Positions 1,081 to 61,304 of a DNA stretch of 64,000 nt are shown here, one piece after another (position 1 is the first letter of the stretch; every line of letters starts with the position of its first letter). The stretch covers positions 20,234,629-20,298,628 of the forward strand of contig NC_081391.1 of NCBI RefSeq assembly GCF_030684315.1, in the 5' to 3' direction. This stretch comes from Stegostoma tigrinum (taxonomy: Eukaryota). The notes under the pieces are model-generated. The model made no database searches and had not been told where the DNA came from. It saw only the letters and a list, made by a program, of their open reading frames with translations. The translations under genes and the position numbers were made by a program.

Positions 1081-1182
1081 CATGGAGAGATAAACATAGG
1101 AGGAATAGAGCTCCAGGTTGATCTGCTTGTTAACAGCATCCTCACAGTCCTTGTGGTAGTTCTGACACACTTGGGAGGCCAT
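1081..1182 (-). CDS. Ferritin M/heavy-chain-B-like copy A, exon 1 only (rest of gene lies outside the window)
   Basis: ATG at 1182-1180 gives [34 protein letters not shown], followed by a GTGAG donor. It is the duplicate of gene H exon 1 (43381-43482). Confidence 0.9.
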
Positions 1183-1249
1183 CTTCACTATTCCTGCTCA
1201 CTTTCACCTGGGCAACTCCAGAACTAAGCCTCTCAGCCACAAGCTCTTG

Positions 1250-1394
1250 GATTTAACCTCCTGGAACATCCTGCACTCAACCAGGGAATGACATCACCAA
1301 TGATGATTGACAATCCCTGATAGCCAATCAGGCATCTCCATGAGTGCAGGAGCCAATGAAGGGCATGGGGTGGAATGAGATCCCCAGAGCCAAT
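1250..1394 (-). promoter_or_regulatory. Proximal promoter of ferritin A (TATA-like, TGACATCA, four inverted CCAAT boxes)
   Basis: Degenerate TATA (TTAAATC) at 1250-1256; agggaatgacatcaccaatga block; CCAAT on the + strand at 1297, 1324, 1353 and 1390. The same block recurs upstream of the paralogs. Confidence 0.65.
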
Positions 1395-2321
1395 CAGAGC
1401 TTTGGAACTGAGGCATATTTGGAACATTCAGTGATTGTCGCTGACGAACAGGAGGTGGATGTTCTGCCCTGTCCTGCCACCCAATTGTGTCAAGCCTGGT
1501 CTGTTGCTTCCTTACGCTCTTCCTACATTGGTCCTGTGTTCCTGTCACACCATGAACGAACAAACATCCAACTGTCTCACATCTGAGCAGTTTATTTGTT
1601 CCCAATATTTCTGGGAAAAAGATTGCAGAGTTCTGAATCCTTTTCCTGAGGAAATGATTCCTGGCACCTGCCCTGGATGGCCACAGCATAATGATGGCAT
1701 TGTACTCCTTGGTCACGCTAAAATAATTTCTCTCCCTCTGGCTCCTCAAACCCGATTGTTATTTTCCAAACTTCAATTGTAGTCAGCCCTAAATCTTCAT
1801 TACCCAAGTGAATGCAAGTACACTCTTTGCAAATTGTCCTCACAATTTAAGCCTGTTAGTCCTGGGATCGTTCTGGTGAATGCACACTGTAGCGCGACGA
1901 TGGTGTTGTTGCTGTGCTAGTCACAGAGAGGCTCGGATTAACACCACGAGGGCAATAAGTGCTGACCTTAGTCAGCAATGCCCTCGTCCCATGAATGAAC
2001 TGAAGAAAACTATCATTGATTGCCTTGGAAATCAATCTGGTTCACTGATATCTTTCAGGGAAGGAAATGGACTCCACGGCCTGTATATGACTACAGACCC
2101 ACAGCAATATCACTGACTCCTAACTTGCGTCTGAGATGGTCAGAAACCTTTTAATTCAAGGGCAGTGAGAGAGGAGCGACGGGGCTTGGTCTTGCCAGTG
2201 ACATTCTCCTCCATGAAATCATTTCAAAAACACTTGCTCCAAGGCCGATATATCAGAACGGAATACTGTTCTCCAGGTGGGGTTCACCCTACACTTTCCA
2301 CCAGTGTAGCACAACCTTTCT

Positions 2322-2627
2322 GGTGGCTCGGTGATTAGTACTACTGCCCCGGAGCGCCGCAGACCTGGGTTCAATCCCATCTTCGAGTGGCCGTTTGTGC
2401 ATTCTCCCTGGGGCTGTGTGGGTCCCCTTCAGAAGCTCTGGGTTCTTCCCACAGTCTAAAGACGTGCACAACAGGTGGACTGGCCGTGCTATGTTGCCTT
2501 TAGCAAGCAGGCTAGGTGGGTTAGCCATGGGGAAATGTGGGGTTAGAAGGATGGGGTGGGCCTGGGTGCAATGCTCGTCAGAGGATCAGTGTGGGCTGAA
2601 TGGCCTAGTTCCACACTGTAGGGATTC
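2322..2627 (+). mobile_element. tRNA-derived V-SINE (HE1-like)
   Basis: A-box-like gtggctcggtgattag and B-box gggttcaatccc; V-domain-like ttcttcccacagtctaaagacgtgca...ggtggactggccgtgcta; CR1-like 3' tail gggctgaatggcct...acactgtagggattc. Confidence 0.75.
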
Positions 2628-3185
2628 ACTGATTTATATTCCAGCTCCACTGCCTTGCAATGAACATTAAAATGCAATTAGCATTTTAAAAACATCTCAT
2701 TTACTCTCTACAAGTTGTTAATAATTTCTGCACGCAGATCCCCAAACACACTCTGCGCCTATTTAGCTCCTCGCACTACACTATTTCAGAACACACTGAT
2801 GTGTGTGTCTTGGTCTGAAGTACTCTTCCTCAGATTAAATTCTACTGGTCAATATTGTCTATTTGCTTTATTAGTGCCATCTGGTTCTGCGTGGCAGAGG
2901 CAGGTTTATTATTGGCAGTGTTCAAGAGGCACTGGGTAATTAAACAGGAACAACTTGCCAGTTTATAGGGAAAGGCAGAAGATTCACAGAAAGGGTAAAG
3001 TGCTCAGAGACCGAGTGCAAATGAGACAGTCTGATGGGCCGTCTTCTACAGTATGATAATGCTGTTGCGCTTCCATCAGGATGAGCTGGCTCACCTCCTC
3101 GGGAAACATGAAGACAACCAATGTGAATGAATTAACTACCACTAGATCAAGGGCAGACTTTGAGACAAACCAAGACATCAGTTGT

Positions 3186-4520
3186 TGGTAAAGTGTTGGA
3201 AAATGTTCCAAGAGATAGGATTTATAATCATCTAGAAAAGAATAATTTGATCAGGGATAGTCAGCACGGTTTTGTGAAGGGTAGGTCGTGCCTCACAATC
3301 CTTATTGCGTTCTTTGAGAAGATGACCAAACACATAGATGAGAGTAAACCGGTTGATGTGGTGTATATGGTTTTCAGCAATGCTTTCGATAAGGTTCCCC
3401 ACATTAGGCTATTTACAAAATGCGGAGGAAAGGAATTGTGGGAGATATAGCAGTTTGGATCAGAAATTGGCTTGCTGAAAGAAGACAGGGTGGTGGTTGA
3501 TGGGAAATGTTCATCCTGGAGACCAGTTACTAGTGGTGTACCACAAGGGTCGGTGTTGGGTCCACTGCTGTTTGTCATTTTTATAAACGGCCTGGATGAG
3601 GGCGTAGATGGATGGGTTAGTAAATTTGCAGACGACACTAAGGTCGTTGGAGTTGTGGATAGTGACAAAGGATGTTGTAGGTTATAGAGACATAGATAGG
3701 TAAGCTGCAGAGCTGGGCTGAGAGGTGGCAAATGGAGTTTAATGCGGACAAGCGTGAGGTGATGCACTTTGGTAGAAGCAACCGGAATGCAAAGTACTGG
3801 GCTAATGGTAACATTCTTGGTAGTGTAGATGAGCAGAGAGATCTCGGTGTCCATGTACACAGATCCTTGAAAGTTGCCACCCAGGTTGACAGCGTTGTTA
3901 AGAAGGCATACAGTGTTTTAGCTTTTATTAATAGAGGGATCGAGTTCCGGAACCAAGAGGTTATGCTGCAGCTGTACAAAACTCTGGTGCGGCCGCACTT
4001 TGAGTATTGCATACAGTTCTGGTCACTGCATTATAAGAAAGATGTGGAAGCTTTGGAAAGGGTGCAGAGGAGATTTACTAGGATGTTGCCTGGTATGGAA
4101 GGAAGGTCTTACGAGGAAAGGCTGAGGGGCTTGAGGCTGTTTTCGTTAGAGAGAAGCAGGTTGAGAGGTGACTTAACTGAGACATAAGATAATCAGAGGG
4201 TTAGATAGGGTGGATAGCGAGAGCCTTTTTCCTAGGATGGTGACAGCGAGCATGAGGGGGCATAGCTTTAAATTGAGGGGTGAAAGATATAGGACAGATG
4301 TCAGAGGTAGTTTCTTTACTCAGAGAGTAGTAAGGGTATGGAACGCTTTGCCTGCAACGGAAGTAGATTCGCCAACTTTAAGTACATTTAAGTCGTTGTT
4401 TGACAAGCATATGGACGTACATGGAATAGTGTAGGTTAGATGGGCTTCAGATTGGTATGACATGTCGGCACAACAGAGGGCCAAAGGGCCTGTACTGTGC
4501 CATAATTTTCTATGTTCTAT
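3186..4520 (+). mobile_element. 5'-truncated CR1 LINE (ORF2 reverse transcriptase C-terminal part, disrupted)
   Basis: ORF pieces [47 protein letters not shown] and FFTQRVVRVWNALP lie in different frames. The 3' tail is ttttctatgttctat. Confidence 0.95.
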
Positions 4521-5225
4521 AAACATCTATCCCACGAGCTCCAGATTTAACCAGGAGCTGAAAAAAAAAACCAAACCCCATCCTCTCCAAGTCTGCTATT
4601 AGAAGGTCAGAGTAGAAGCTGATATCTTTTTATATCGGCTCACTAAAGCCTTAATTTAGGGAGGGTGGGGGTCTTAGCCTTTCTAAAAGAGAAATGACTT
4701 GCTGCCTGCCAGATGTAGTGTAAGGGAAGTCAGGTACTGAGCAAAAAAACCCGAAATAGATGCTTCAAATGTGGGAAGCCTCTGAACATCTAAGGGATGA
4801 GTCAAGCTTTCCTCAAAAAGTAAATAGACACCACAAGAGTGCTTTTGACCTCTGGCTTTGAGAGATGATTTCAATATTTTATCAGTACTGCTGCAACATT
4901 TTGCTGAAGATAAACTTGGTTGCTCGTACTGCTGCAAACAAGGGGCAATTGCCCCATATATAGCCAAATGCTTGTCCACTCACTGACTCCAAGTATCTTT
5001 GGACAGTCATCCCTGTTGACATTATCCAGCTGGTCCAAGGAATTGGACCAAAGTCAGCAAACCATATCCAAGTTGTTGGGAATGGACAAAATCCTTGGAA
5101 GATATTGGATAGGCTTTGGGCTGCAGAATTACAGAAAGCTAGACAGCTTTGGTTCAATGATTTTTATTTCATATTCCAGTACAAGCAAAAGAGAATGCAA
5201 GGACCAAGTGATTGTAAAATCCCAC

Positions 5226-7397
<2,172 letters not shown>

Positions 7398-7462
7398 CTT
7401 CACACCTAATTACAAAAAGCAAACCCAAACAACAGCCTAACCCCACCTCCCATGAGCTCTAG

Positions 7463-7611
7463 TATATATGTAAATGGGAATCTGCATTCCAACAGGAAGT
7501 TATCACCAATAGTGCTTGGCTATTAGGGATTTCCAATCAGCAGGCTCCCATGAATACAGGCATTAATTAGGGAGAGGTGCTGGGGGGAGCTATGTACAAA
7601 GCAGAGCCAAT
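7463..7611 (-). promoter_or_regulatory. Proximal promoter of ferritin B
   Basis: TATATA at 7463-7468, 65 nt upstream of the ATG; CCAAT on the + strand at 7506, 7533 and 7607. Confidence 0.55.
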
Positions 7612-9970
7612 CGGAGCAGTGGGAAACCAGCAGGTTTCAACAGTTTGGGCCATGGGAACAGGAGGAGACCATTCAGCCCCTCAAACCTATTTCAGTATTT
7701 AATTAGATCTTGGCTGGTCTGCTTCTCAGTTCCATATAAACTACCTTCTTCCATAAAGCGGAATCATAGAATCCCATCACAAATTCACCAAAGATCCTCA
7801 GCTGGCACCTTCCAAGCAGATGACCATTTCCATCTAGACAGACAAGGGCAGCAGACACGTGAGACCACCACCAACTTCAAGCTCCCCTCCGAGCCACTCA
7901 CCATCCCGACTTGGAAATATGTTGGCGTGCCTTCAGTGTCTCTGGGTGGAAATCCTGGAATTCCCTCTGTACGGCCATCGGGGTCGACATGGACTGCAGC
8001 GGTTCATGAAGGCAGCTGAACCCCACCTTCTCAAGGGGAATCTAGCAATGTACAACAAATGCTGGCCCAACCCATGACTGCCCTTGTCCCGCAAGTGAAT
8101 ACTCAAAAAAATTACAGTGCCGGAGGAGGCACTGAGTGTAGATAGGTCAGCACAGACCTGATGTCTATGGCCCGAATGTCGATCTCTTTGTAATCCAGAC
8201 AGTTCTGTGCCTGTCCACCAGCTCTTGCAATTTCTGCAGATGGATCCCATAACCTTATGGTCATCACCAATTCTGTTCCCCGAATTTCACCGTTTAGCTA
8301 ATTTCTCTTTCTTGTTCCGAAGTGCATGGCCTCACTCTTCCTCACATTGAGGCCTGCCTGCTGCTGTTTGCTCATTCATTTCAACAATGGCTTGTTGCAA
8401 ACTTTCTGGTCCCATCCACACCATCCACTTTGTCGCTTAACTTTGTTTTGTCAGGAAATTTGGACATATATCTCTCGAGTCCTTCATCTACGTCAATCTG
8501 TCAATGTGAAACTGAAGCCCATGTGGAGATCCCTGGGAGTGAGAGTCAAATTTTGTCAATCAAAGTTGGCAGCCATTCTGTCAGCCACCTTCCCCCTTCC
8601 CAATTCCCAACCCATGTCCAACAGTAACTTCCTATTGTACGCGCATGCATTTTTCCTAATTATGTCATGGATACTCGTCATTGTTGGAATTGATTTTAGT
8701 TGCTTTGACTGTTCTCAAACTGATAGCATCAGTCCTCCAGGTCAGAGCTCCCCAGTTCACCTTAGGGTTTGACGAGTTTGTAAATGAATATTTCTCCCTG
8801 TACATGATGTCGAATTAAATGACATCTGAAGGTTTGAAGCATCTCTCATCTGATCCAGAAGAGGTCAGGGACACTGACACTGATCACAGCAGTTGAGGAT
8901 ATTACCCTGCACGAGATAGCCTGCAGCAAATCTGCAAATCAACCAGTCCCACTGGGAAAACAATGTCTCACTTCTGCACCCCTGCCCTCCTCAGGACTGA
9001 CTCTGAGCACTGCAGTATATGGAAAATCACTGTTCAGTTAGTTTGCGACATCCAGGGTAAGCACCAGGATTCCTTACTCATTTAATTGCATGCTTGTGAC
9101 AAAAAAAAATGGGAGCCAGCGTCCACGTGGCGGACTCCCAGTGCAATGGCCACCTACCTCTGTACAACAGAGACTCTATCACTGGTGTGTCTCGCAAGCC
9201 AGCCGGCAAGCAGGCTGTTGTTTGGATAATGAGTGCTTTCCTGAAGTTTGGCAGAGGGCACAGTTGTTTGTCATAAACTCAGCTGTGTTAGCTGTTAATT
9301 GCCAGTGCCGAGGGCAGAAAGTAAAAGGAAGCATCAGCCCACCCACTATTAAACTTGGGGGAAAAAAAAAAGAGAGTTTTCTAACCACGTGCCAGCAGAA
9401 TGTATTTCACATGTGCACCAACTACTTTGCTGAGATGCTCAAGTCACACGTAGGCCAGATCAGGTAATGGTAGCAGATTTCACTCCTCATGAAAGATTAG
9501 TCAAACAGAAGAATGGTAGATATGCAAAACTGTCAGATAGTAAACTGCCCTGATACACCGGCTGTCTCTTTAGGTCTTTAAGGATTCTGCAAGCTCTCAG
9601 CTCACATTTGGAAGAAAGTTGAGCACTGGCTGCCAAACCTCAGTAAAGTAAGGAACTGCAAAAGCATGTTTAAGAGAAGTGTTGTGTAGTGACAGCATCG
9701 CTAGACCAGGGTGGTCAGATTTGAGCCCCACCTGAGAGGTGATTAACATCCAAAAATGAATTGATTATCAGAGGGTTCAACTGTGTCAAAAGGTGACAGA
9801 AGCACCTGCCATACAACCTAGATATGATGGATCTGAACAAAAATCAGTTATTCAATTTCACTAAAAGTGTTTCTTCATTATGGAGATTTTATTTTCCAAT
9901 TCAACAAGGGTAGATAAAGTTTCTAAAAGACTAATCCATTTACAGCACTGATGGGATTCTAAAATCCCAC

Positions 9971-12286
<2,316 letters not shown>

Positions 12287-12353
12287 TGTCACTATTCCTG
12301 CTCACTATCACCGAGACAGCTCTCATATCAAGTCTTTGTACCACAAGCTCCAG

Positions 12354-12480
12354 TATTTATACTCCTGGGACATCCTATGTTCAACGAGGGAATGACATCA
12401 CCAATGATGACTGACATTCCCTGAAAGCCAATTAGGAATCTCCCATGAATTTAGCCCCGCCTCTGCCCTCCCACCAATTA
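12354..12480 (-). promoter_or_regulatory. Proximal promoter of ferritin C
   Basis: TATAAATA at 12361-12354; TGACATCA next to CCAAT (12401); further CCAAT at 12428 and ~12475; GC box ccccgcc at ~12455. Confidence 0.7.
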
Positions 12481-12769
12481 GAGAGAGGGTGTGGGTGTAT
12501 TCGGCAGAGCTGATCAGAGGTGCAGATTGTTGTCAAGTCTGGATGGTTATTCTGTGATTGGATCAGCAGTCGGTCATTTAGAATCTCCAATCTGCTGGAA
12601 CTCTCTATCGGGCCATGGTTAGTTTGAAAAATAAAACTAGATTTGGATTTGGAAAGCTTTTCTTTTTAAACTAAGCTTGTTGTGACCAACTGCAAGAGGT
12701 GCTCAATGAAGGAGAATCAGTTTCTGATCATGTTCTGCTGGGATATTGGAGAGAAAGGTCGGAGATTGG

Positions 12770-13560
12770 TGGTAGTTCCTAGAAATTTGTAACAGAAACA
12801 AACAGGACAAAGACAGGAAAGATGTTTCTGATGACCAATGCGCCCAGAACCAAGGGTCACTGTCTAAGGATATAGAGTAGACTGTTTGGGATTGAGATGA
12901 GGAGAAATGTCTTCAGCCATACAGTGGGGAGTCTGTTGTATTGTCTGGGACAGGAAACAGTTGAGGCCAAAAGACTGAAGGTTTTGAAGAGTTAGATGTA
13001 GCTGATCGGGCTATGGGGATCAAAGGGTATGGAGAGAGAGTGTGAAGATGGTACGGAGTTAAGGGATTACCCATCATCATATGGAATGTCAGAGCAGGCT
13101 GGAAGGGCTGTATCAAAATGGTTCATAATTTTGAACATTTCAATCAGGTCATCTTTTAATCGTCTCTGCTCCAAGGAGATAAGGCCAATTTTTAAAATCT
13201 TTCCTGGTATCATTCCAGCAAATCTCCTTTGCACCATGTCCAGGGCTTTAATGCCCTCCCTTTGAAACAGTGCCCAGAATTGAACACAATACTCTAATGC
13301 GGTCTGACCAATGGTGTGTAGTGGTGTAGCGTTACTACCTTGGTTTTATACTCCATGGCTCTCCTTAAAAACACAAGATTCCTATAAGCCTTCTTCATGA
13401 CTGTTTCATCTTGCCTGGCCACCTTCAGGGAATTGTAGTTTTAAATCCTGAGGGCTCCCTGCTCCTGTACTCACCTTGACGTTGTTCCATTGTACCTGTA
13501 TTATCTCTTCATGTCTCCATGTTTCTTCGACCAAAATGCATTTCTTGCATTTTTTTGTGT
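12770..13560. mobile_element. Old CR1 LINE relics (+ strand 3' end, then a - strand ORF2 piece)
   Basis: Degenerate similarity to the CR1 copies at 3186 and 29921 (ccagaaccaagggtcac..., gatgaggagaaatgtcttcagcc, cccagaattgaacacaatactc). Paralogous relics at ~29010-29790 and ~57090-57880. Confidence 0.6.
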
Positions 13561-14619
13561 TGAAATTATAAAGTGATTGCCAACATCAAATCTTACCCAA
13601 TAAAAATCAAGAGATGCTAATTTTGAAGTCTTCAACTGACACCGGACATGTGTGTGTGTCCACTACCCACTATCCTTTCTGTGAAGAGGCTGTTTCTGAC
13701 ATTATCCTGGGCCGTTTAGCACTAATTTGAAGATTCTATATCCGTTCCATACCTTAAGTCCTAGAAGACCCATTGAGAAGAAACAATTCCTCTGAATCTA
13801 CCCTGTCAAGTCCATTAATGGTCTTAAAACTTTCAAGTACTGCCATCTCTTAACCTTCCATACTGAGGGACTCGGGCAAGCTGCCATCATCATTTAACCA
13901 GCTCTTTATCTCTGAGTTGATTCTGGAAATTCTCGGCTGCACCATCTTCAGGCCCAACCTGCCGAAAATGAGATCTCCAGGGATGGTTGAACCAGAACTT
14001 GACAATTTCATAAAAAACTCCACCCAGAGGTGTTCAAATCCCTTAGAGATCAGGACTGACATTGAATTAATTTCTTTGTTCAGTGTTTTTATATCTCGTC
14101 TCTAGTTTCAATACATTTCTGTCCACTTGTCTCAGTTTCATTTTGATCATTAGTTTTGACAACCCAGCAGAAGATGTCCCCATTTCTAAAACACTCTGGC
14201 TCACCTTTCTTGGTCAGGAGTGGATAACTTCGCACTTCCCCTTATTGAACTGTATCAGCCAGTCTTCCCCACTCCATGGAAGTTTGAAACATTCCACTGT
14301 CATGATAAAGTGCCACTTGATGTAATGCCATCAGCAAATATTTGAATTGTGGCTGTCCATTTCTTCATCTCGAACACTTATAATCCAAGGAAAATTTAAG
14401 GCCCCAGTTTCTCTCCTTGGGGAAAGTAATCACATCTTGCTTTTTCTTTTATTACCTCATGGGATGAAGGTGTTGTTGGCTGGCCCAGCATTTATTGTAC
14501 TTCCCTAATTATTATTGTCTTCTTGAATTGCTGTTGTCCATTTGGTGCAGGGAGATCCATAATGCCATTTTGGACAGAATTCCAGGATTCAGATGGTATG
14601 ACTGTAGATTGAGTTTTGC

Positions 14620-14830
14620 CTCATGAGCTTCATTGAGTATTTTGAAGATTTGATGTAGAGCAATGATGAGGGCAGAGTGGTGGGCGTGATCTACATGGAC
14701 TGCAATGAAGCGTTTGACAATGTTGCTCATAGTAAGCTGTTTAGCAAAGTGAGATCACATGGAATCCAGGGAGAATTATCCATTTGGATACAGAAATGGC
14801 TCAAAAGTGGAAGGCACAGGGTGCCGGTAG
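14620..14830 (+). mobile_element. CR1 reverse transcriptase fragment, truncated by a Penelope insertion
   Basis: VGVIYMDCNEAFDNVAHSKLFSKVRSHGIQGELSIWIQKWL resembles the CR1 motif DVVYMDFSKAFDKVPH. Paralogs at 31954 and 58999. Confidence 0.75.
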
Positions 14831-14832
14831 AG

Positions 14833-15560
14833 GCAACAAAGTGTGGAGCCGGAGGAACACAGCAGGCCAGGCAGCATCAGAGGAGCAGAAAAGCTGATGT
14901 TTCGGGTTGAGACCCTTGAGAAATTGGGAGGGGGAGGGGAAGCTCAGAAATAAGGAGGAGGGGTGGGACTGGGGATGGTAGGTGGGATGGTGATGGGTGA
15001 GTGCAGATAGGGAGTGGTCAGTGAGGTGGGAGAGAAGGCCAAGGAGGTGGGGATTGGTCATGGGATGAGGACACTTTGAAGTTAATAAGGTTAATAAGGT
15101 CCACATTTAGTGTCTTGGGCTATAAGCTCCCAAGGCAGAATATGAGGTGCTACTCCTCTAGTTTGAGGATGACATTGGTGTGATACTGGAGGATGCCCAA
15201 GATGGACAGGTCAGCCATGGAGTGGGAGGGGGGGGTGGAAGTTAAAACATTTTGTGATTGGAAAGTGTTGTTGTTTGTTGCTCATTGAGCGCAGATGCTC
15301 CAGAGAAACTGTCTCCCTCATGGTGGCTACATTGGGTGCAGCCGATACAATAGACCAACTTGAAACAGGTGCAGGTGATCTGTGTCTGATGCCGAAGGTT
15401 TGTTAGTTTTTATTTTGAATGGAGACACGGGGTGGATGTGGTGGTGGGGCGAGGGGGTCAGGGAATGGTGTAGCTGTTCCTGCAGTTGCAGGGAACAGGG
15501 CTGGGGTTAATGGGGAGTACAGAGTGGATGAGTGAGTGGCAGGGACACCAGCGTAGAGGT
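14833..15560 (-). mobile_element. Degenerate, internally deleted Penelope-like element
   Basis: Terminus aaagtgtggagccggaggaacacagcaggcc...gctgatgtttcgggttgagaccctt, followed by sequence homologous to the GIY-YIG region of 18431-19775. Confidence 0.7.
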
Positions 15561-15832
15561 ACTGTGGTGTCCACAGTAAGAGGGGCTATGCCTGCTTCTG
15601 TCGGATATGTGGAACAGTCCCTCTTCTGCTGCTCCACTGGCACTATCCCCTACCTTTTCCTTACTCAAAGATTGAAAGTAAATAGCCAGCTACATTGCTG
15701 TGTGGGTGGTGAGTCAGCTGTCGGCCAACTGCTTTCCTTCCCTGAAAGGGTTAGAAAAGTTTAGAACTGCTGAGAGTTGGTCTTTCTGCAAATTAAGTGA
15801 AGTGTCTCTTCTACTCTGACCCGCCCCAACCG

Positions 15833-15897
15833 AAGCCGAGATGCTATGAAGGGAACTCTGCAGATAAAGAAGGTGAACCAGAGTCTCCCGGATCCCC
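15833..15897 (+). pseudogene. Inverted (+ strand) relic of ferritin exon 3
   Basis: gatgctatgaagggaactctgcagataaagaaggtgaaccagagtctcccggatc aligns to sense exon 3 gaggcaatgcagagagctctgcagatggagaaggatgtgaaccagagtctgctggatc. Confidence 0.7.
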
Positions 15898-16837
15898 TTG
15901 TCTACAAATGTAGCTTTAATTGCACCAGCTGTCCTCAGCAGTTGATTGCTGGAGCAAGAACAGGGACTATGCCACGTTTGTCCCACACGCGACAAGGTGG
16001 GCATTGAGGATAGGAGACACTGTTACAGGAGAGAGCAGATTCCTCACTCAGTCTCCTACAGTGGAGACTTGTTAGAAAATCCAATTCCTTAGCTTGGGAA
16101 ACGAGAACAGTGGTGTATTGCTTGCCCAAAGAAGCATGGAGAAAAAGCAACTTGCATGCCAGATGCTATTGCTGTTACAGTCTTATTAAGGAATATTTTG
16201 AATGCTTAGATTCTACCAGTAAAGTTAACAGAATATTACTGGCAAAACTGAGGCCTGGCAGCACCTGGAGACAGACTTCAGTTGTGGAGTCACCAGGCTC
16301 AACCATTAACTGGTTTAATCAACACACATCCAGAGTTTCACCTGCACCTACCCCGCCACCCCGCAAACCCCAGCAATTTCTATTTTGTTTGATCCCAGCT
16401 TTTAGGAAAGTTGGAGCATTGCTCGGGACAGGGCACCAGTTAAGTGGCTAACAGTTAGATAGAGTGGAGCAATTTTGGTGAAGCTATTCACGAGAGACTA
16501 CTCTTACAGAATTGTCACAGTGAGGACAAGACAGATAGTGAGCATTGCGAACAAGCCAAAAGCTTAACAGTTGTGATTTCCGCAACAATTACTCACTTCA
16601 AAAATTCTCCTGGCTCTGGATTCAGAAACTGAACAAAAATTGCCAGGGCAAGCATCGATTCAATGCAGAGAGCAAAAAGCCGAAGGGACTGAATAATCAG
16701 ATAATAAACAGCCAAATAAATGAAGCAGTCACTCAAAGTCGTCAGATACATGGGCAATGTTTTCATTGACTTTTTTGTGCACTCTGCACTTGCACTAGAA
16801 CACCAGTGTGCAACAGATGGAGTTGTTGAATCCCCAT

Positions 16838-40514: not shown

Positions 40515-43482
<2,968 letters not shown>

Positions 43483-45485: not shown

Positions 45486-46811
45486 TGGTAAAGTGTTGGA
45501 AAATGTTCCAAGAGATAGGATTTATAATCATCTAGAAAAGAATAATTTGATCAGGGATAGTCAGCACGGTTTTGTGAAGGGTAGGTCGTGCCTCACAATC
45601 CTTATTGCGTTCTTTGAGAAGATGACCAAACACATAGATGAGAGTAAACCGGTTGATGTGGTGTATATGGTTTTCAGCAATGCTTTCGATAAGGTTCCCC
45701 ACATTAGGCTATTTACAAAATGCGGAGGAATGGAATTGTGGGAGATATAGCAGTTTGGATCGGAAATTGGCTTGCTGAAAGAAGACAGGGTGGTGGTTGA
45801 TGGGAAATGTTCATCCTGGAGACCAGTTACTAGTGGTGTACCACAAGGGTCGGTGTTGGGTCCACTGCTGTTTGTCATTTTTATAAACGGCCTGGATGAG
45901 GGCGTAGATGGATGGGTTAGTAAATTTGCAGACGACACTAAGGTCGTTGGAGTTGTGGATAGTGACAAAGGATGTTGTAGGTTATAGAGACATAGATAGG
46001 TAAGCTGCAGAGCTGGGCTGAGAGGTGGCAAATGGAGTTTAATGCGGACAAGCGTGAGGTGATGCACTTTGGTAGAAGCAACCGGAATGCAAAGTACTGG
46101 GCTAATGGTAACATTCTTGGTAGTGTAGATGAGCAGAGAGATCTCGGTGTCCATGTACACAGATCCTTGAAAGTTGCCACCCAGGTTGACAAGAAGGCAT
46201 ACAGTGTTTTAGCTTTTATTAATAGAGGGATCGAGTTCCGGAACCAAGAGGTTATGCTGCAGCTGTACAAAACTCTGGTGCGGCCGCACTTTGAGTATTG
46301 CATACAGTTCTGGTCACTGCATTATAAGAAAGATGTGGAAGCTTTGGAAAGGGTGCAGAGGAGATTTACTAGGATGTTGCCTGGTATGGAAGGAAGGTCT
46401 TACGAGGAAAGGCTGAGGGACTTGAGGCTGTTTTCGTTAGAGAGAAGCAGGTTGAGAGGTGACTTAACTGAGACATAAGATAATCAGAGGGTTAGATAGG
46501 GTGGATAGCGAGAGCCTTTTTCCTAGGATGGTGACAGCGAGCATGAGGGGGCATAGCTTTAAATTGAGGGGTGAAAGATATAGGACAGATGTCAGAGGTA
46601 GTTTCTTTACTCAGAGAGTAGTAAGGGTATGGAACGCTTTGCCTGCAACGGAAGTAGATTCGCCAACTTTAAGTACATTTAAGTCGTTGTTTGACAAGCA
46701 TATGGACGTACATGGAATAGTGTAGGTTAGATGGGCTTCAGATTGGTATGACATGTCGGCACAACAGAGGGCCAAAGGGCCTGTACTGTGCCATAATTTT
46801 CTATGTTCTAT
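45486..46811 (+). mobile_element. 5'-truncated CR1 LINE (duplicate of 3186-4520)
   Basis: Same RT motifs, with a 9-nt deletion (QVDKKA versus QVDSVVKKA). Confidence 0.95.
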
Positions 46812-47518
46812 AAACATCTATCCCACGAGCTCCAGATTTAACCAGGAGCTGAAAAAAAAAAACCAAACCCCATCCTCTCCAAGTCTGCTATTAGAAGGTC
46901 AGAGTAGAAGCTGATATCTTTTTATATCAGCTCACTAAAGCCTTAATTTAGGGAGGGTGGGGGTCTTAGCCTTTCTAAAAGAGAAATGACTTGCTGCCTG
47001 CCAGATGTAGTGTAAGGGAAGTCAGGTACTGAGCAAAAAAAACCCTAAATAGATGCTTCAAATGTGGGAAGCCTCTGAACATCTATGGGATGAGTCAAGC
47101 TTTCCTCAAAAAGTAAATAGACACCACAAGAGTGCTATTGACCTCTGGCTTTGAGAGATGATTTCAATATTTTATCAGTACTGCTGCAACATTTTGCTGA
47201 AGATAAACTTGGTTGCTCGTACTGCTGCAAACAAGGGGCAATTGCCCCATATATAGCCAAATGCTTGTCCACTCACTGACTCCAAGTATCTTTGGACATT
47301 CATCCCTGTTGACATTATCCAGCTGGTCCAAGGAATTGGACCAAAGTCAGCAAACCATATCCAAGTTGTTGGGAATGGACAAAATCCTTGGGAGATATTG
47401 GATAGGCTTTGGGCTGCAGAATTACAGAAAGCTAGACAGCTTTGGTTCAATGATTTTTATTTCATATTCCAGTACAAGCAAAAGAGAATGCAAGGACCAA
47501 GTGATTGTAAAATCCCAC

Positions 47519-49691
<2,173 letters not shown>

Positions 49692-50679
49692 CTTCACACC
49701 TACTTACAAAAAGCAAACCCAAACAACAGCCTAACCCCACCTCCCACCATTTCTAGTATTTATGTGAATGGGAATCTGCATTCCAACAGGAAGTTATCAC
49801 CAATAGTGCTTGGCTATTAGGGATTTCCAATCAGCAGGCTCCCATGAATACAGGCATTAATTAGGGAGAGGTGCTGGGGGGAGCTATGTACAAAGCAGAG
49901 CCAATCGGAGCAGTGGGAAACCAGCAGGTTTCAACAGTTTGGGCCATGGGAACAGGAGGAGACCATTCAGCCCCTCAAACCTATTTCAGTATTTAATTAG
50001 ATCTTGGCTGGTCTGCTTCTCAGTTCCATATAAACTACCTTCTTCCATAAAGCGGAATCATAGAATCCCATCACAAATTCACCAAAGATCCTCAGATTGC
50101 ACCTTCCAAGCAGATGACCATTTCCATCCAGACAGACAAGGGCAGCAGACACGTGAGACCACCACCAACTTCAAGCTCCCCTCCGAGCCACTCACCATCC
50201 CGACTTGGAAATATGTTGGCGTGCCTTCAGTGTCTCTGGGTGGAAATCCTGGAATTCCCTCTGTACGGCCATCGGGGTCGACATGGACTGCTGCGGTTCA
50301 TGAAGGCAGCTGAACCCCACCTTCTCAAGGGGAATCTAGCAATGTACAACAAATGCTGGCCCAACCCATGACTGCCCTTGTCCCGCAAGTGAATACTCAA
50401 AAAAATTACAGTGCCGTAGGAGGCCATTTGGCCAATTGTGCTGCACCAGATCCATTGTGCTCATCTCTTGCCATGTCCCTGCACATCACCACGATCCCAA
50501 AAGAAAACCCAATGCTCTCTTCAAAGCTTCAATTGTATGTGCCCTCCCCACGTCTCCAGGCAGCACATTGCGCATACTCTCCACATTCTGTGTAAAAATG
50601 TTTTTTTTTCTCACTTCACCCTTGCTTTGTTTGCACATCACTTTAACTATCCCCTCACGTATCTACTTTTTAAAATTTG

Positions 50680-51022
50680 TTGACGGGTTGAGGGCATTGC
50701 TGACTAGGCAGCATTTATTGCCCATCCCTAATTGCCCAGAGGGCAGTTAAGGGTCAACCACATTGCTGTGGGTTTGGAGTCTCATGTTGGCCATTTGGCA
50801 GTTTGGTAAATGGCGGTTTTTTTCCCTAAAGGACATTAGAGGACCAGATGGATTTTTCCAGCAATTGACAATGGACTCATGGTCATCGTTAGATTCTTAA
50901 ACTCCAGATATTTATTGAAATCAAATTCCACCATTTACCATGGTGGGATTTGAACCAGGGTCCGCAGAACATGATCTGGGTCTCTAGATTAACAGTCCAC
51001 AATCATACCACGGGGCCATCGC
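50680..51022 (-). mobile_element. tRNA-derived SINE relic
   Basis: Reverse-strand tRNA-like head (gggatttgaaccagggtcc...accacggggccatc) and tail cagcatttattgcccatccctaattgccc, which recurs degenerately at ~14485 and ~51375. Confidence 0.5.
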
Positions 51023-52873
51023 CAAGTAGAAAATAAATGGGTTACTTAACAACAGCCAAGAATCTTGGATTTGAATGTTCAATTTATTCCCAAGGTTTTG
51101 GCAGAGCAGGGTTTAGATTTCCAGCATTGTGTGTGTGAGGAGCACCGTCCCTAATGGATGAGCTCGAACCTTTAGGTTATGCTGCTGTCTACACCGACTT
51201 CCTCTTGTCCGAAAATATCACACCCGAGAACATCGTTTTTCTCTCGTTGACTCTATCAAATCAATTAATCAGCTTCAAATCTTAATAATAATTCTTCCTT
51301 GTTCTTCTACACTCACAGGAACTTGAGGTTTTAAAAAATGTTGTTTTGGGATGTTGGCATCACTGGCGGGGTGTGTATTTATTGCCCATCCCTAGTTTCC
51401 TCTTGAGAAGGTGGTGGTGAGTTGCCTTTGTGAACAGTTGCAATGTCCATCTGGTGCAGATAGACTCAGATTGCCCCTAAGGAGAGAATTCCAGAAATCT
51501 GACTGATTTAACACTGCAGTGACACTGAAGGGACGGTAATATATTTCCAAGCCAGGATGGTGGATGGCTTGGAGGGGAACCTGCAGGGGGTGGTGTTCCC
51601 ACGTATCTACTGCCCTTGTCTGAGCAGATGGAAGTGGATGTGGCTTTGGAAGGAGCTGTCAAAATACCTGAATTTCATCTTCAATGCAAATTGCCTTCAT
51701 TGTTTAACCCTTTCGACCTGTTGTCATCCTGTGCTGCATTCCCTCACAGACTCATAGATCGAGACCTGAATACAGTATCATAGATATGCACTCACTGGCA
51801 TTTAATAAATGGTAGCAGAACTGTCCGATCAATAACATGGGGGCATCATTTTAAGGTGAAGAGCAGTAGGTTTAGAGGGGATTTGCCAAAAACATTTTTC
51901 ACCCAGATGGTGTGATGGGAATCTGGAATGCACTGTGTGGGAGGGTAGTAGAGATGGGAAACATCACAACTTTTGAAACGTACATGGATGGGCACTTGAA
52001 GTGTCATTACACTCAAGGCTATAGGTGAAGTGCTAGAAAGTGAGATGAGTGTAGACAGGTCAGCACAGACCTGATGTCTATGGCCCGAATGTCGATCTCT
52101 TTGTAATCCAGACAATTCTGTGCCTGTCCACCAGCTCTTGCAATTTCTGCAGATGGATCCCATAACCTTATGGTCACCACCAATTCTGTTCCCCGAATGT
52201 CACAGTTTAGCTAATTTCTCTTTCTTGTTCCGAAGTGCATGGCCTCACTCTTCCTCACATTGAGGCCTGCCTGCTGTTGTTTGCTCATTCATTTCAACAA
52301 TGGCTTGTTGCAAACTTTCAGGTCCCATCCACACCATCCACTTTGTCGCTTAACTTTGTTTTGTCAGGAAATTTGGACATATATCTCTCGAGTCCTTCAT
52401 CTACGTCAATCTGTCAATGTGAAACTGAAGCCCAAGTGGAGATCCCTGGGAGTGAGAGTCAAATTTTGTCAATCAAAGTTGGCAGCCATTCTGTCAGCCA
52501 CCTTCCCCCTTCCCAATTCCCACCCCATGTCCAACAGTAACTTCCTATTGTACGCGCATGCATTTTTCCTAATTATGTCATGGATACTCGTCATTGTTGG
52601 AATTGATTTTAGTTGCTTTGACTGTTCTCAAACTGATAGCATCAGTCCTCCAGGTCAGAGCTCCCCAATTCACCTTAGGGTTTGACGAGTTTGTAAATGA
52701 ATATTTCTCCCTGTACATGATGTCGAATTAAATGACATCTGAAGGTTTGAAGCATCTCTCATCTGGTCCAGAAGAGGTCAGGGACACTGACACTGATCAC
52801 AGCAGTTGAGGATATTACCCTGCACGAGATAGCCTGCAGCAAATCTGCAAATCAACCAGTCCCACTGGGAAAA

Positions 52874-52969
52874 CAGAGATAATGGGAACTGCAGATGCTG
52901 GAGAATCCAGGATAACAAAGTGTGGAGCTGGATGAACACAGCAGGCCCAGCAACATCTCAGGAGCACAA
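52874..52969 (-). mobile_element. Very short Penelope terminal insertion
   Basis: cagagataatgggaactgcagatgctggagaatcc...ggagcacaa, flanked by the imperfect direct repeat cactgggaaaac / cactgggggaaac. Confidence 0.75.
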
Positions 52970-54299
52970 CACTGGGGGAAACAGACAGGATGCCTCTATC
53001 GGAATCCTATCACTCCCATTGCTGTTAAGTTTCATGTAAAGCTTTATCCGATCAAGCTCAGGAGCTCTATCATCCATTCCTTCTTCTGTAAGGAAGTTGT
53101 CTGTTGGATTTCTCTCAGATTTGAGAAAAAAAATATGAAAAGCAGTATTAATCTCAGGACGAGAATCAATTCTTTTGGTATTTCCTGACACCAGAAAATA
53201 TAGTCCTTTCAATTTAGAGTGCAGGAAATTGTTGAACAAATTGCAGCACGAGAATCTATGTCCAGTACCAGATTTAAGTCCTGCTTGATAATGTCTCACT
53301 TCTGCACCCCTGCCCTCCTCAGGACTGACTCTGAGCACTGCAGTATATGGAAAATGACTATTCAGTTAGTTTGCGACATCCAGGGTAAGCACCAGGATTC
53401 CTTACTCATTTAATTGCATGCTTGTGACAAAAAAAAATGGGAGCCAGCGTCCACGTGGCGGACTCCCAGTGCAATGGCCACCTACCTCTGTACAACAGAG
53501 ACTCTATCACTGGTGTGTCTCGCAAGCCAGCCGGCAAGCAGGCTGTTGTTTGGATAATGAGTGCTTTCCTGAAGTTTGGCAGTGGGCACTGTTGTTTGTC
53601 ATAAACTCAGCTGTGTTAGCTGTTAATTGCCAGTGCCGAGGGCAGAAAGTAAAAGGAAGCATCAGCCCACCCACTATTAAACTTGGGGAAAAAAAAAAAG
53701 AAGAGTTTTCTAACCACGTGCCAGCAGAATGTATTTCACATGTGCACCAACTACATTGCTGAGATACTCGAGTCACACGTAGGCCAGATCAGGTAATGGT
53801 AGCAGATTTCACTCCTCAAGAAAGATGAGTCAAACAGAAGAATGGTAGATATGCAAAACTGTCAGATAGTAAACTGCCCTGATACACCGGCTGTCTCTTT
53901 AGGTCTTTAAGGATTCTGCAAGCTCTCAGCTCACATTTGGAAGAAAGTTGAGCACTGGCTGCCAAACCTCAGTAAAGTAAGGAACTGCAAAAGCATGTTT
54001 AAGAGAAGTGTTGTGTAGTGACAGCATCGCTAGACCAGGGTGGTCAGATTTGAGCCCCACCTGAGAGGTGATTAACATCCAAAAATGAATTGATTAGCAG
54101 AGGGTTCAACTGTGTCAAAAGGTGACAGAAGCACCTGCCATACAACCTAGATATGATGGATCTGAACAAAAATCAGTTATTCAATTTCACTAAAAGTGTT
54201 TCTTCATTATGGAGATTTTATTTTCCAATTCAACAAGGGTAGATAAAGTTTCTAAAAGACTAATCCATTGACAGCACTGATGGGATTCTAAAATCCCAC

Positions 54300-56620
<2,321 letters not shown>

Positions 56621-59156
56621 TGTCACTATTCCTGCTCACTATCACCGAGACAGCTCTCATATCAAGTCTTTGTACCACAAGCTCCAGTATTTATACTCCT
56701 GGGACATCCTATGTTCAACGAGGGAATGACATCACCAATGATGACTGACATTCCCTGAAAGCCAATTAGGAATCTCCCATGAATTTAGCCCCGCCTCTGC
56801 CCTCCCACCAATTAGAGAGAGGGTGTGGGTGTATGAGGCAGAGCTGATCAGAGGTGCAGATTGTTGTCAAGTCTGGATGGTTATTCTGTGATTGGATCAG
56901 CAGTCGGTCATTTAGAATCTCCAATCTGCTGGAACTCTCTATCGGGTCATGGTTAGTTTGAACAGAAAACTAGATTTGGATTTGGAAAGCTTTTCTTTTT
57001 AAACTAAGCTTGTTGTGACCAACTGCAGGAGGTGCTCAATGAAGGAGAATCAGTTTCTGCTGGGATCTTGGAGAGAAAGGTCGGAGATTGGTGGTAGTTC
57101 CTAGAAATTTGTAACAGAAACAAACAGGACAAAGACAGGAAGGATGTTTCTGGTGACCAATGCGCCCAGAACCAAGGGTCACTGTCTCAGGATACAGAGT
57201 AGTCTGTTTGGGATTGAGATGAGGAGAAATGTCTTCAGCCATACAGTGGGGAGTCTGTTGTATTGTCTGGGACAGGAAACAGTTGAGGCCAAAAGACTGA
57301 AGGTTTTGAAGAGTTAGATGTAGCTGATCGGGCTATGGGGATCAAAGGGTATGGAGAGAGAGTGTGAAGATGGTACGGAGTTAAGGGATTACCCATCATC
57401 ATATGGAATGTCAGAGCAGGCTGGAAGGGCTGTATCAAAATGGTTCATAATTTTGAACATTTCAATCAGGTCATCTTTTAATCGTCTCTGCTCCAAGGAG
57501 ATAAGGCCAATTTTTAAAATCTTTCCTGGTATCATTCCAGCAAATCTCCTTTGCACCATGTCCAGGGCTTTAATGCCCTCCCTTTGAAACAGTGCCCAGA
57601 ATTGAACACAATACTCTAATGCGGTCTGACCAATGGTGTGTAGTGGTGTAGCGTTACTACCTTGGTTTTATACTCCATGGCTCTCCTTAAAAACACAAGA
57701 TTCCTATAAGCCTTCTTCATGACTGTTTCATCTTGCCTGGCCACCTTCAGGGAATTGTAGTTTTAAATCCTGAGGGCTCCCTGCTCCTGTACTCACCTTG
57801 ACGTTGTTCCATTGTACCTGTATTATCTCTTCATGTCTCCATGTTTCTTCGACCAAAATGCATTTCTTGCATTTTTTTGTGTTGAAATTATAAAGTGATT
57901 GCCAACATCAAATCTTACCCAATAAAAATCAAGAGATGCTAATTTTGAAGTCTTCAACTGACACCGGACATGTGTGTGTGTCCACTACCCACTATCCTTT
58001 CTGTGAAGAGGCTGTTTCTGACATTATCCTGGGCAGTTTAGCACTAATTTGAAGATTCTATATCCGTTCCATACCTTAAGTCCTAGAAGACCCATTGAGA
58101 AGAAACAATTCCTCTGAATCTACCCTGTCAAGTCCATTAATGGTCTTAAAACTTTCAAGTACTGCCATCTCTTAACCTTCCATACTGAGGGACTCGGGCA
58201 AGCTGCCATCATCATTTAACCAGCTCTTTATCTCTGAGTTGATTCTGGAAATTCTCTGCTGCACCATCTTCAGGCCCAACCTGCCGAAAATGAGATCTCC
58301 AGGGATGGTTGAACCAGAACTTGACAATTTCATAAAAAACTCCACCCAGAGGTGTGCAAATCCCTTAGAGATCAGGACTGACATTGAATTAATTTCTTTG
58401 TTCAGTGTTTTTATATCTCGTCTCTAGTTTCAATACATTTCTGTCCACTTGTCTCAGTTTCATTTTGATCATTAGTTTTGACAACCCAGCAGAAGATGTC
58501 CCCATTTCTAAAACACTCTGGCTCACCTTTCTTGGTCAGGAGTGGATAACTTCGCACTTCCCCTTATTGAACTGTATCAGCCAGTCTTCCCCACTCCATG
58601 GAAGTTTGAAACATTCCACTGTCATGATAAAGTGCCACTTGATGTAATGCCATCAGCAAATATTTGAATTGTGGCTGTCCATTTCTTCATCTCGAACACT
58701 TATAATCCAAGGAAAATTTAAGGCCCCAGTTTCTCTCCTTGGGGAAAGTAATCACATCTTGCTTTTTCTTTTATTACCTCATGGGATGAAGGTGTTGTTG
58801 GCTGGCCCAGCATTTATTGTACTTCCCTAATTATTATTGTCTTCTTGAATTGCTGTTGTCCATTTGGTGCAGGGAGATCCATAATGCCATTTTGGACAGA
58901 ATTCCAGGATTCAGATGGTATGACTGTAGATTGAGTTTTGCCTCATGAGCTTCATTGAGTATTTTGAAGATTTGATGTAGAGCAATGATGAGGGCAGAGT
59001 GGTGGGCGTGATCTACATGGACTGCAATGAAGCGTTTGACAATGTTGCTCATAGTAAGCTGTTTAGCAAAGTGAGATCACATGGAATCCAGGGAGAATTA
59101 TCCATTTGGATACAGAAATGGCTCAAAAGTGGAAGGCACAGGGTGCCGGTAGAGGC

Positions 59157-59880
59157 AACAAAGTGTGGAGCCGGAGGAACACAGCAGGCCAGGCAGCATC
59201 AGAGGAGCAGAAAAGCTGATGTTTCGGGTCGAGACCCTTGAGAAATTGGGAGGGGGAGGGGAAGCTCAGAAATAAGGAGGAGGGGTGGGACTGGGGATGG
59301 TAGGTGGGATGGTGATGGGTGAGTGCAGATAGGGAGTGGTCAGTGAGGTGGGAGAGAAGGCCAAGGAGGTGGGGATTGGTCATGGGATGAGGACACTTTG
59401 AAGTTAATAAGGTTAATAAGGTCCACATTTAGTGTCTTGGGCTATAAGCTCCCAAGGCAGAATATGAGGTGCTACTCCTCTAGTTTGAGGATGACATTGG
59501 TGTGATACTGGAGGATGCCCAAGATGGACAGGTCAGCCATGGAGTGGGAGGGGGGGGTGGAAGTTAAAACATTTTGTGATTGGAAAGTGTTGTTGTTTGT
59601 TGCTCATTGAGCGCAGATGCTCCAGAGAAACTGTCTCCCTCATGGTGGCTACATTGGGTGCAGCCGATACAATAGACCAACTTGAAACAGGTGCAGGTGA
59701 TCTGTGTCTGATGCCGAAGGTTTGTTAGTTTTTATTTTGAATGGAGACACGGGGTGGATGTGGTGGTGGGGCGAGGGGGTCAGGGAATGGTGTAGCTGTT
59801 CCTGCAGTTGCAGGGAACAGGGCTGGGGTTAATGGGGAGTACAGAGTGGATGAGTGAGTGGCAGGGACACCAGCGTAGAG
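59157..59880 (-). mobile_element. Degenerate Penelope-like element (duplicate of 14833)
   Basis: Near-identical to 14833-15560. Confidence 0.7.
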
Positions 59881-60154
59881 GTACTGTGGTGTCCACAGTA
59901 AGAGGGGCTATGCCTGCTTCTGTCGGATATGTGGAACAGTCCCTCTTCTGCTGCTCCACTGGCACTATCCCCTACCTTTTCCTTACTCAAAGATTGAAAG
60001 TAAATAGCCAGCTACATTGCTGTGTGGGTGGTGAGTCAGCTGTCGGCCAACTGCTTTCCTTCCCTGAAAGGGTTAGAAAAGTTTAGAACTGCTGAGAGTT
60101 GGTCTTTCTGCAAATTAAGTGAAGTGTCTCTTCTACTCTGACCCGCCCCAACCG

Positions 60155-60219
60155 AAGCCGAGATGCTATGAAGGGAACTCTGCAGATAAAGAAGGTGAAC
60201 CAGAGTCTCCCGGATCCCC
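60155..60219 (+). pseudogene. Inverted relic of ferritin exon 3 (duplicate of 15833)
   Basis: Same sequence as 15833-15897. Confidence 0.7.
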
Positions 60220-61159
60220 TTGTCTACAAATGTAGCTTTAATTGCACCAGCTGTCCTCAGCAGTTGATTGCTGGAGCAAGAACAGGGACTATGCCACGTT
60301 TGTCCCACACGCGACAAGGTGGGCATTGAGGATAGGAGACACTGTTACAGGAGAGAGCAGATTCCTCACTCAGTCTCCTACAGTGGAGACTTGTTAGAAA
60401 ATCCAATTCCTTAGCTTGGGAAACGAGAACAGTGGTGTATTGCTTGCCCAAAGAAGCATGGAGAAAAAGCAACTTGCATGCCAGATGCTATTGCTGTTAC
60501 AGTCTTATTAAGGAATATTTTGAATGCTTAGATTCTACCAGTAAAGTTAACAGAATATTACTGGCAAAACTGAGGCCTGGCAGCACCTGGAGACAGACTT
60601 CAGTTGTGGAGTCACCAGGCTCAACCATTAACTGGTTTAATCAACACACATCCAGAGTTTCACCTGCACCTACCCCGCCACCCCGCAAACCCCAGCAATT
60701 TCTATTTTGTTTGATCCCAGCTTTTAGGAAAGTTGGAGCATTGCTCGGGACAGGGCACCAGTTAAGTGGCTAACAGTTAGATAGAGTGGAGCAATTTTGG
60801 TGAAGCTATTCACGAGAGACTACTCTTACAGAATTGTCACAGTGAGGACAAGACAGATAGTGAGCATTGCGAACAAGCCAAAAGCTTAACAGTTGTGATT
60901 TCCGCAACAATTACTCACTTCAAAAATTCTCCTGGCTCTGGATTCAGAAACTGAACAAAAATTGCCAGGGCAAGCATCGATTCAATGCAGAGAGCAAAAA
61001 GCCGAAGGGACTGAATAATCAGATAATAAACAGCCAAATAAATGAAGCAGTCACTCAAAGTCGTCAGATACATGGGCAATGTTTTCATTGACTTTTTTGT
61101 GCACTCTGCACTTGCACTAGAACACCAGTGTGCAACAGATGGAGTTGTTGAATCCCCAT

Positions 61160-61304
61160 TCAGCTCAGGCTGAGCCTCTCAAACAGATACTCTCCTTTGC
61201 CCTTCTGAGGGGCTCCCAGTCTCTTCAGGTTGGTGATGTGATCTCCCAGCTTCTTGATCATCTTCACTTGCTCATCCAAGTAGTGCCTCTCCAGGAAGTC
61301 ACAG
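61160..61304 (-). pseudogene. Ferritin copy K, exon 4 only (duplicate of D)
   Basis: Same 2-nt deletion and the same Penelope junction (61619) as D. Confidence 0.9.

Follow-up and report, generated by a model that had tools for sequence, protein, structure and literature searches.

We conclude that a 64-kb window of the zebra shark (Stegostoma tigrinum) genome, by which we mean the whole stretch of contig NC_081391.1 that was analysed, is a segment of a known shark ferritin cluster, and that this cluster is most likely an iron-independent, high-dosage source of ferritin for the oocyte. The array is already in print for other sharks and is not a discovery. In the model that we propose, the window would be the zebra shark slice of an old, shark-wide tandem ferritin cluster, whose promoters with a TATA box and several CCAAT boxes would give mRNAs that have about 45 nt of leader and lack an iron-responsive element (IRE). 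Output would be set by gene dosage and transcription rather than by iron and the iron regulatory proteins (IRPs), and the growing oocyte would be stocked with ferritin, to store iron for the large yolky egg and buffer it against oxidation. Unequal crossing-over would produce nested duplications, chimeric genes and pseudogenes, and ectopic gene conversion confined to the coding exons would keep the proteins alike within a species. The oocyte role and tissue in the zebra shark, IRP independence, escape from NCOA4, iron loading and the conversion mechanism are what we infer.

Mapping the four exons of one ferritin copy along the window gave 11 loci, all on the minus strand and together spanning 1081..61304, namely five intact genes, one gene cut by the edge, three broken four-exon copies and two exon-4 relics. 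This agrees with the first-pass annotation of the same DNA, which had counted five intact, one edge-truncated and five pseudogene loci in one orientation. The four-exon structure that it gave to all of them holds for the 8 of 11 loci in which all four exons are visible, and fails for L4 and L11, which retain exon 4 only (L1 is edge-cut). Each intact gene (L3, L5, L6, L8 and L10) has a 522-nt coding sequence in exons of 102, 147, 126 and 147 nt, encodes 173 aa and has GT-AG introns (5/5). A processed-pseudogene origin of the loci is ruled out by the presence of introns. The loci are as follows.

L1, 1081..1182, minus strand: exon 1 only, the window edge cutting off the rest; twin of L8 (exon mapping and repeat alignment).
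L2, 5226..7397, minus strand: four-exon pseudogene with a +1 frameshift in exon 2 and a divergent promoter.
L3, 9971..12286, minus strand: intact; exons 12286-12185, 11304-11158, 10662-10537 and 10117-9971.
L4, 16838..16981, minus strand: exon-4-only relic, a truncated duplicate of the L7 3' end.
L5, 21464..23650, minus strand: intact; exons 23650-23549, 22784-22638, 22155-22030 and 21610-21464.
L6, 26410..28536, minus strand: intact; exons 28536-28435, 27538-27392, 26928-26803 and 26556-26410.
L7, 34200..35958, minus strand: decayed four-exon pseudogene with indels in exon 2 and lost splice sites.
L8, 40515..43482, minus strand: intact; exons 43482-43381, 42167-42021, 41849-41724 and 40661-40515.
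L9, 47519..49691, minus strand: pseudogene, twin of L2, with the same exon 2 frameshift and an extra stop in exon 1.
L10, 54300..56620, minus strand: intact, twin of L3, with three amino-acid differences and no synonymous ones.
L11, 61160..61303, minus strand: exon-4-only relic, twin of L4 and a truncated duplicate of the L7 3' end.

The loci are carried by a higher-order repeat, of which the window holds one unit and part of another.

Unit 1, 1..42298: seven loci, L1-L7 (self-comparison).
Unit 2, 42299..64000: partial, 0.72% diverged from unit 1.

The earlier description of seven loci per 42.3-kb unit, with the repeat open at both window edges, was borne out by a direct alignment of 1-19678 with 42299-64000 that contains 142 substitutions in 19,656 columns (0.72%; 99.3% identity) and 14 indels, the repeat running to both edges. 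Self-comparison resolves it into the blocks 1-8130 = 42299-50424 and 8962-19678 = 53290-64000 (about 99.1%), and unit 2 carries two inserts, one of 1,619 bp (near 50425) and one of 415 bp (near 52875). Older duplications are nested within unit 1, pairing 10530-13643 with 26796-29881 (88.6%), 13670-17296 with 31002-34658 (86.7%) and 17726-21618 with 36749-40669 (91.7%).

Two haplotypes assembled in tandem would also give such a repeat, in which case L8-L11 would count L1-L4 twice, and the divergence between the units is indeed of the order seen between the window and the DNA run X1 over L5-L6 (25 differing letters in about 4,570 bases, in the eight pieces listed). We consider this false duplication unlikely, since the units differ by the two insertions and by one unit-specific stop codon, many near-identical RefSeq array proteins share one 26.87-Mb contig, and the seven loci of a single unit differ in their introns and cannot be collapse artefacts. 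Those seven loci are distinct and real even if the second unit is a haplotype duplicate. All 30 bins of 21400-29000 are covered by X1, with about 0.5% differences in the eight pieces listed, so a DNA run labelled as this species also contains the L5-L6 region; the summed depth in X1 (about 240-1,400 over exons and about 30 over flanks) is not a copy number and was not used. One X1 contig (depth 5.9) has an exon 2-exon 3 junction (22155/27392), possibly from a processed retrocopy elsewhere in the genome.

A TATA-like hexamer lies at -73 to -75 in 9/9 loci with exon 1, with GTTAAA at this position in L8. Overall, 3-6 CCAAT boxes precede the ATG along with the TATA box; counted within 400 bp, each of the five intact genes has 5-6, and the background for the whole window is 0.69 per 250 bp. 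Three of these promoters are placed as follows.

12356..12361, minus strand: TATAAA of L3 at -75, with five CCAAT/ATTGG boxes in the 305 bp that precede the ATG.
23720..23725, minus strand: TATAAA of L5 at -75, with six CCAAT/ATTGG boxes upstream.
28606..28611, minus strand: TATAAA of L6 at -75, with five CCAAT/ATTGG boxes.

With the start site predicted from the TATA box, the 5' leader would be about 45 nt long. No IRE was recognized in or near these genes: Rfam gave no IRE match at gathering level across the 64 kb, no IRE family occurred among the five matches to E=5 in 21000-45000 or the seven to E=10 around the L6 start (28400-29600), and a stem-loop scan for the element returned four sites, none in a 5' leader. 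The relaxed-E Rfam matches themselves (MIR856 and others) lie far under gathering scores and were rejected as chance or repeat hairpins. As no IRE was recognized in a leader, translation of the array would not be gated by IRPs, and output would follow copy number and transcription. In L3 and L10, an out-of-frame ATG occurs 40 nt ahead of the start codon (12326 and 56660, minus strand), near the predicted cap.

The window proteins match Pfam PF00210 at 131-132 bits (cutoff 24.5, E about 1e-38) and the ferritins of PDB at E 1e-80 to 1e-88, the best match, at E about 1e-87, being the M ferritin of the bullfrog (1mfr family). The products of L3 and L8 are 100% identical to the RefSeq Stegostoma tigrinum proteins P0193 (XP_059496502.1) and P0126 (XP_059496699.1), respectively, and the family and the shark source proposed from the letters alone were thus both right. 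Residues were counted in 67 array-type rows, 36 other vertebrate rows and the five window proteins. The ferroxidase residues E24, Y31, E58, E59, H62, E104 and Q138, among which we take Y31 to belong, occur in 5/5 window proteins and in 63-67 of the 67 array-type rows, and the nucleation residues E54 and E61 in 5/5 window proteins. H115, C127, D128 and E131, presumably the residues of the three-fold channel, are conserved in array proteins. The ligands given for the salmon H and M chains in PMC4117605 are E24, E58, E59, H62, E104 and Q138. Judged by these residues, the ferroxidase centre of the window proteins is intact. The proteins begin MASQ or MVSQ and by inspection have no hydrophobic leader, so the shark array proteins look cytosolic rather than secreted. 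A further lineage-wide change is M141, present in 64/67 array rows; the residue of other ferritins at this position is Ala, Ser or Asp. An odd single-copy substitution, W60, is seen in L3 and L10.

According to PMC11076521, A19, N22 and R23 of human FTH1 are the docking residues for NCOA4, and A19Y and R23A abolish binding. The array retains N22 and has changed the other two lineage-wide, A19 to D and R23 to K: D15 (58/67 array rows) aligns with A19, which is A in 35/36 other vertebrate rows, and K19 (64/67) aligns with R23, which is R in 36/36. Reduced NCOA4 binding of the array ferritin is a prediction only, the R-to-K change being conservative and shark FTH1 itself having Ser at N22.

Trees were built from 37 and 46 hand-chosen rows under LG+G4 without a mixture model, with fragments and fused models excluded and no mammalian FTL row among those chosen; a further tree of 111 rows is a quick tree only. 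In the 46-row tree, the window genes group in one clade with other shark array proteins, three batoid proteins and one chimaera protein (97/95). FTH1 forms a clade of its own (98/95), from which the window genes are absent; it includes the FTH1 of zebra shark, skate and chimaera, and P0354, P0302 and P0280 belong to it. Identity of the window proteins is 73-74% to the FTH1 of the zebra shark and 69-71% to that of the pig. The array is on the 26.87-Mb contig and zebra shark FTH1 (P0354) on another, of 64.4 Mb. This suggests that the array genes are a separate ferritin lineage with shark, ray and chimaera members and not copies of FTH1. The phylogeny proposed in the first-pass annotation thus separated the array from FTH1 and left its placement between H and M/L unsettled, with approximately unbiased (AU) p values of 0.28 for a sister relation to the H clade and 0.15 for a grouping with M/L on a poorly supported backbone. 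The array is not placed within the M clade of bony vertebrates. An array-lineage gene lies on one contig with the ordinary non-H gene both in Heterodontus (39.0 Mb) and in Pristis (20.2 Mb), which favours an M/L origin, and the lineage probably derived from an M/L locus. The separate lineage and the lack of an IRE had both been missed in the earlier reading of this DNA.

At least 11 shark species of several orders have array-type proteins (carpet sharks, catsharks, a houndshark, lamniforms, the horn shark, the sevengill and a sawshark), in 90%-identity clusters of 69-180 members, and at least 32 distinct ferritin sequences of Stegostoma lie on the 26.87-Mb contig. Within the clade, the proteins group largely by order or species in the quick tree, where many forks are open. 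A second amplified shark subfamily (P0115, P0177, P0178, P0181, P0305, P0329, P0330 and P0332) lies on the same zebra shark contig, outside the window, and has E59K in 5/5 and Q138E in 4/5 rows, so it lacks ferroxidase ligands and recalls the mammalian L chain; it may be what the Greenland shark preprint discussed below counted as FTL.

Several observations on related sequences stand apart from this argument. Among P0328, P0334, P0314 and P0323, the lineage's skate members lack ferroxidase ligands through loss (H62 to Q, E58 to D), and its sawfish and chimaera members are also changed. Outside the window, RefSeq models of 261-267 aa with exon order 1-2-3-2-3-4 (P0002, P0003, P0005, P0216, P0221 and relatives) come from several sharks and form a 54-member cluster; they are either real exon-duplicated genes or gene-model fusions of adjacent copies. 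A 90-aa ferritin fragment labelled Salmonella enterica (P0217) clusters with the shark array proteins and is probably contamination or a mislabelled record. Large ferritin clusters of 14-50 members also exist in turtles, frogs and lampreys (P0337, P0343, P0261 and P0244; members were read for lamprey only), hinting at parallel expansions in other egg-laying vertebrates.

Four sequencing runs were compared with 21400-29000; runs X6-X12 contain 0.05 of the words. Run X5, of the same species, has 39,522 contigs that match this region, and its joints skip exactly the three L6 introns (246, 463 and 896 nt, with CT..AC ends; 15 of the 126 joints were listed), so X5 appears to be spliced RNA of the array. 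The amplified family is thus also expressed, and the outcome that the first-pass annotation had named as damaging, silence of every intact copy, is not what was found, as the joints belong to intact L6. X16 and X17, which share the study code of X5, have 11 and 87 records, respectively, against 39,522, and as contigs show presence and not absence these figures do not speak for tissue restriction. Upstream of the predicted start, X5 lacks cover (bins 23940-24447 and 28766-29000); since contigs cannot show a start, this was given no weight. An exon 1 to exon 3 joint (26928/28435), which skips the 147-nt exon 2 in frame, was seen in five X5 contigs.

The oocyte had been one of the tissues guessed from the sequence, and this guess would fit the Greenland shark, for which the preprint describes the main ferritin cluster as ovary-specific (bioRxiv 10.1101/2024.09.09.611499). 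A high-output role outside the germline, in gut, gill or skin epithelium, in immune cells or in general defence against reactive oxygen species (ROS), has a precedent in the tandem, broadly and highly expressed fthl27 copies of a snailfish (PMC10746142), and the tissue of X5 is not stated. We nevertheless regard such a role as quite unlikely, since the ovary specificity above is the sole tissue information seen for a shark ferritin cluster and ferritin transcripts are abundant in zebrafish follicles and in other vertebrate ovary libraries, according to PMC1488847.

The contrast between exons and introns suggests how the copies were kept alike. Exons are 91-100% identical in the 10 pairs among L2, L3, L5, L6 and L8, whereas 25 of 30 intron comparisons gave only local alignments of 39 nt or less, the other five aligning at 83-90%. 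Over 25 pair-introns selected because they do not align, ungapped identity is 0.87-0.88 in the first six intron bases and 0.26-0.31 beyond 15, so that background level is reached about 15 nt from the splice sites. The genes are also mosaics: L5 combines introns 2-3 like those of L3 with a 3' flank like that of L8, and L6 has an L3-type promoter and introns 1-2 with an intron 3 of its own. L3 exon 4 equals L6 exon 4 (0 differences), yet it is one site off its recent 99% twin L10, and among six sequences 17 of the 91 pairs of informative sites are incompatible by the four-gamete test. Near-identical exons beside unalignable introns point to exon-limited gene conversion, and unequal crossing-over with gene conversion through exon homology, on top of birth-and-death, would be the simplest reading of the sequences. 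Conversion templated by cDNA was ranked lower, the 3' untranslated match ending about 10 nt past the stop and no intron loss being found in the window.

The birth-and-death evolution proposed in the first-pass annotation fits the nested duplications and the 5/11 broken loci, and falls short, if taken alone, at the near-identical exons beside unalignable introns. That birth-and-death with purifying selection could explain the exon likeness without any conversion seems to us very unlikely, although the nested duplications, the broken loci and ratios of nonsynonymous to synonymous divergence (dN/dS) below 1 agree with it. Four-fold degenerate sites differ by only 5-16% (3/58 to 10/61) between genes whose introns mostly cannot be aligned, exon 4 of the pseudogene L2 is 1-2 changes from those of L3, L6, L8 and L10 while its neighbouring intron 3 and 3' flank do not align, and the mosaics of intron types also speak against it. 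In nine non-twin pairs of intact genes, dN/dS is 0.17-0.56 and dS 0.06-0.18, which indicates purifying but relaxed selection on the copies. A largely neutral amplification of an unstable tandem locus, in which few copies matter, would account for the many pseudogenes, for dN/dS values up to 0.56 and for W60 in L3 and L10; we hold it to be highly improbable given the spread of array-type proteins over at least 11 shark species of several orders, in clusters of 69-180 members, and the conserved promoters and catalytic centre.

Several points weigh against the proposal of an iron-independent oocyte ferritin kept uniform by conversion. The transcription start comes from the TATA box only, so an upstream exon bearing an IRE stays formally possible. 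X5 is not recorded as RNA, its RNA status being inferred from the joints, and its tissue is not stated; most of its contigs are short and 16,086 of the 39,522 match at two positions, which prevents a ranking of single copies. The link to the ovary comes from another species and from one sentence of a preprint, though orthology of the clusters is likely. The tree leaves an H versus M/L origin undecided (AU p 0.28 and 0.15). Constraint on single copies is relaxed, as seen from the three replacement and no silent changes between L3 and L10 and from the dN/dS near 0.5 of some pairs, and four-gamete failures among six sequences can also arise by repeated mutation.

The closest known system is that of the Greenland shark, for which the 2024 preprint reports 155 'FTL' and 179 'FTH1' copies, the largest cluster having 104 + 118, in clusters syntenic with the white shark (bioRxiv 10.1101/2024.09.09.611499). 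The zebra shark window, with 11 loci in 64 kb, resembles these Greenland and great white shark clusters as a very large clustered expansion, and the array is likely orthologous to that of the Greenland shark. In contrast to the preprint's FTH1 label, the window genes fall outside the FTH1 clade. The main text of the preprint has no match to 'IRE' or 'gene conversion', and the search index returns no occurrence of 'ferritin' in the zebra shark genome paper (PMC10620051). In the literature searched, which left subscription journals and bioRxiv supplements outside, a query for 'fth1b' with 'shark' gave 0 results, the shark cluster was described only in the Greenland shark preprint, and no mention turned up of a separate lineage, a lack of the IRE, a changed NCOA4 site or homogenisation limited to exons. 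The L3 and L8 products are among the RefSeq gene models of the 26.87-Mb zebra shark contig that are called 'ferritin heavy/middle subunit-like'; these names were assigned automatically, vary between heavy, middle and oocyte isoform, and are no guide to lineage. A second Greenland shark genome paper is said to describe an FTH1b expansion.

Like the M ferritins of teleosts and amphibians, the array has four exons, the ferroxidase centre and the acidic E54 and E61. Salmon H and M mRNAs carry IREs, according to PMC4117605; unlike salmon M, the array has no IRE match and has M141. Teleost fthl expansions are similar in their tandem amplification and, in snailfish fthl27, in high expression. The hadal snailfish has 14 mostly tandem fthl27 copies, high in most tissues, whose overexpression lowers ROS, as reported in PMC10746142; unlike the array, this is a recent, broadly expressed and independent event in another lineage. 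The yolk ferritins of invertebrates (Schistosoma, Lymnaea) are egg-associated isoforms, as is proposed for the array, with an unrelated origin, and the Schistosoma ferritin mRNAs are without IREs according to a title cited in PMC1488847.

The Greenland shark preprint gives its ferritin clusters one paragraph under FTH1 and FTL labels, and the sequence examined here suggests a separate lineage, no translational control by iron and a changed NCOA4 site. If this is true, shark eggs would be a natural test of a vertebrate ferritin that is IRE-free and resistant to turnover, and of the iron supply to large yolky eggs. A bolder version, which we hold tentatively and think rather doubtful, is that a third cartilaginous-fish ferritin lineage, as old as the chimaera-shark split, free of IRE control and, through A19D and R23K at the NCOA4 docking site, less subject to ferritinophagy, would build with the ferroxidase-deficient partner subfamily of its chromosome a degradation-resistant oocyte ferritin from hundreds of conversion-uniform genes. 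Readings of shark ferritin expansions in terms of longevity are affected, the expansion being general to sharks, small short-lived ones included. The sharp exon/intron contrast also offers a clean case for studying ectopic gene conversion.

Minor features of the window complete the description. Inverted, decayed ferritin exon 3 fragments lie on the plus strand at 15840-15894, 33242-33306 and 60162-60216, about 0.9 kb downstream of L4, L7 and L11, respectively; they are an old partial duplicate carried along in later duplications. AATAAA occurs 60-81 nt past the stop in L2, L3, L6, L9 and L10, and AATACA stands at the poly-A signal position in L5 and L8 (3' flanks of 21464-21610 and 40515-40661). 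A decayed element at 37815-38456 (minus strand), with relatives at 17316-19838 and 61638-63783, has a weak GIY-YIG match (E 4.5e-4, below cutoff) and inverted repeats of about 410 bp, and we take it to be Penelope-like; the copy at 17316 sits at the truncation point of L4. Fragments at 3696-4184, 30171-30833 and 45996-46475 (plus strand), which gave no Pfam match in the two tested, presumably resemble the C-terminus of a CR1/L2-type reverse transcriptase of long interspersed nuclear elements.

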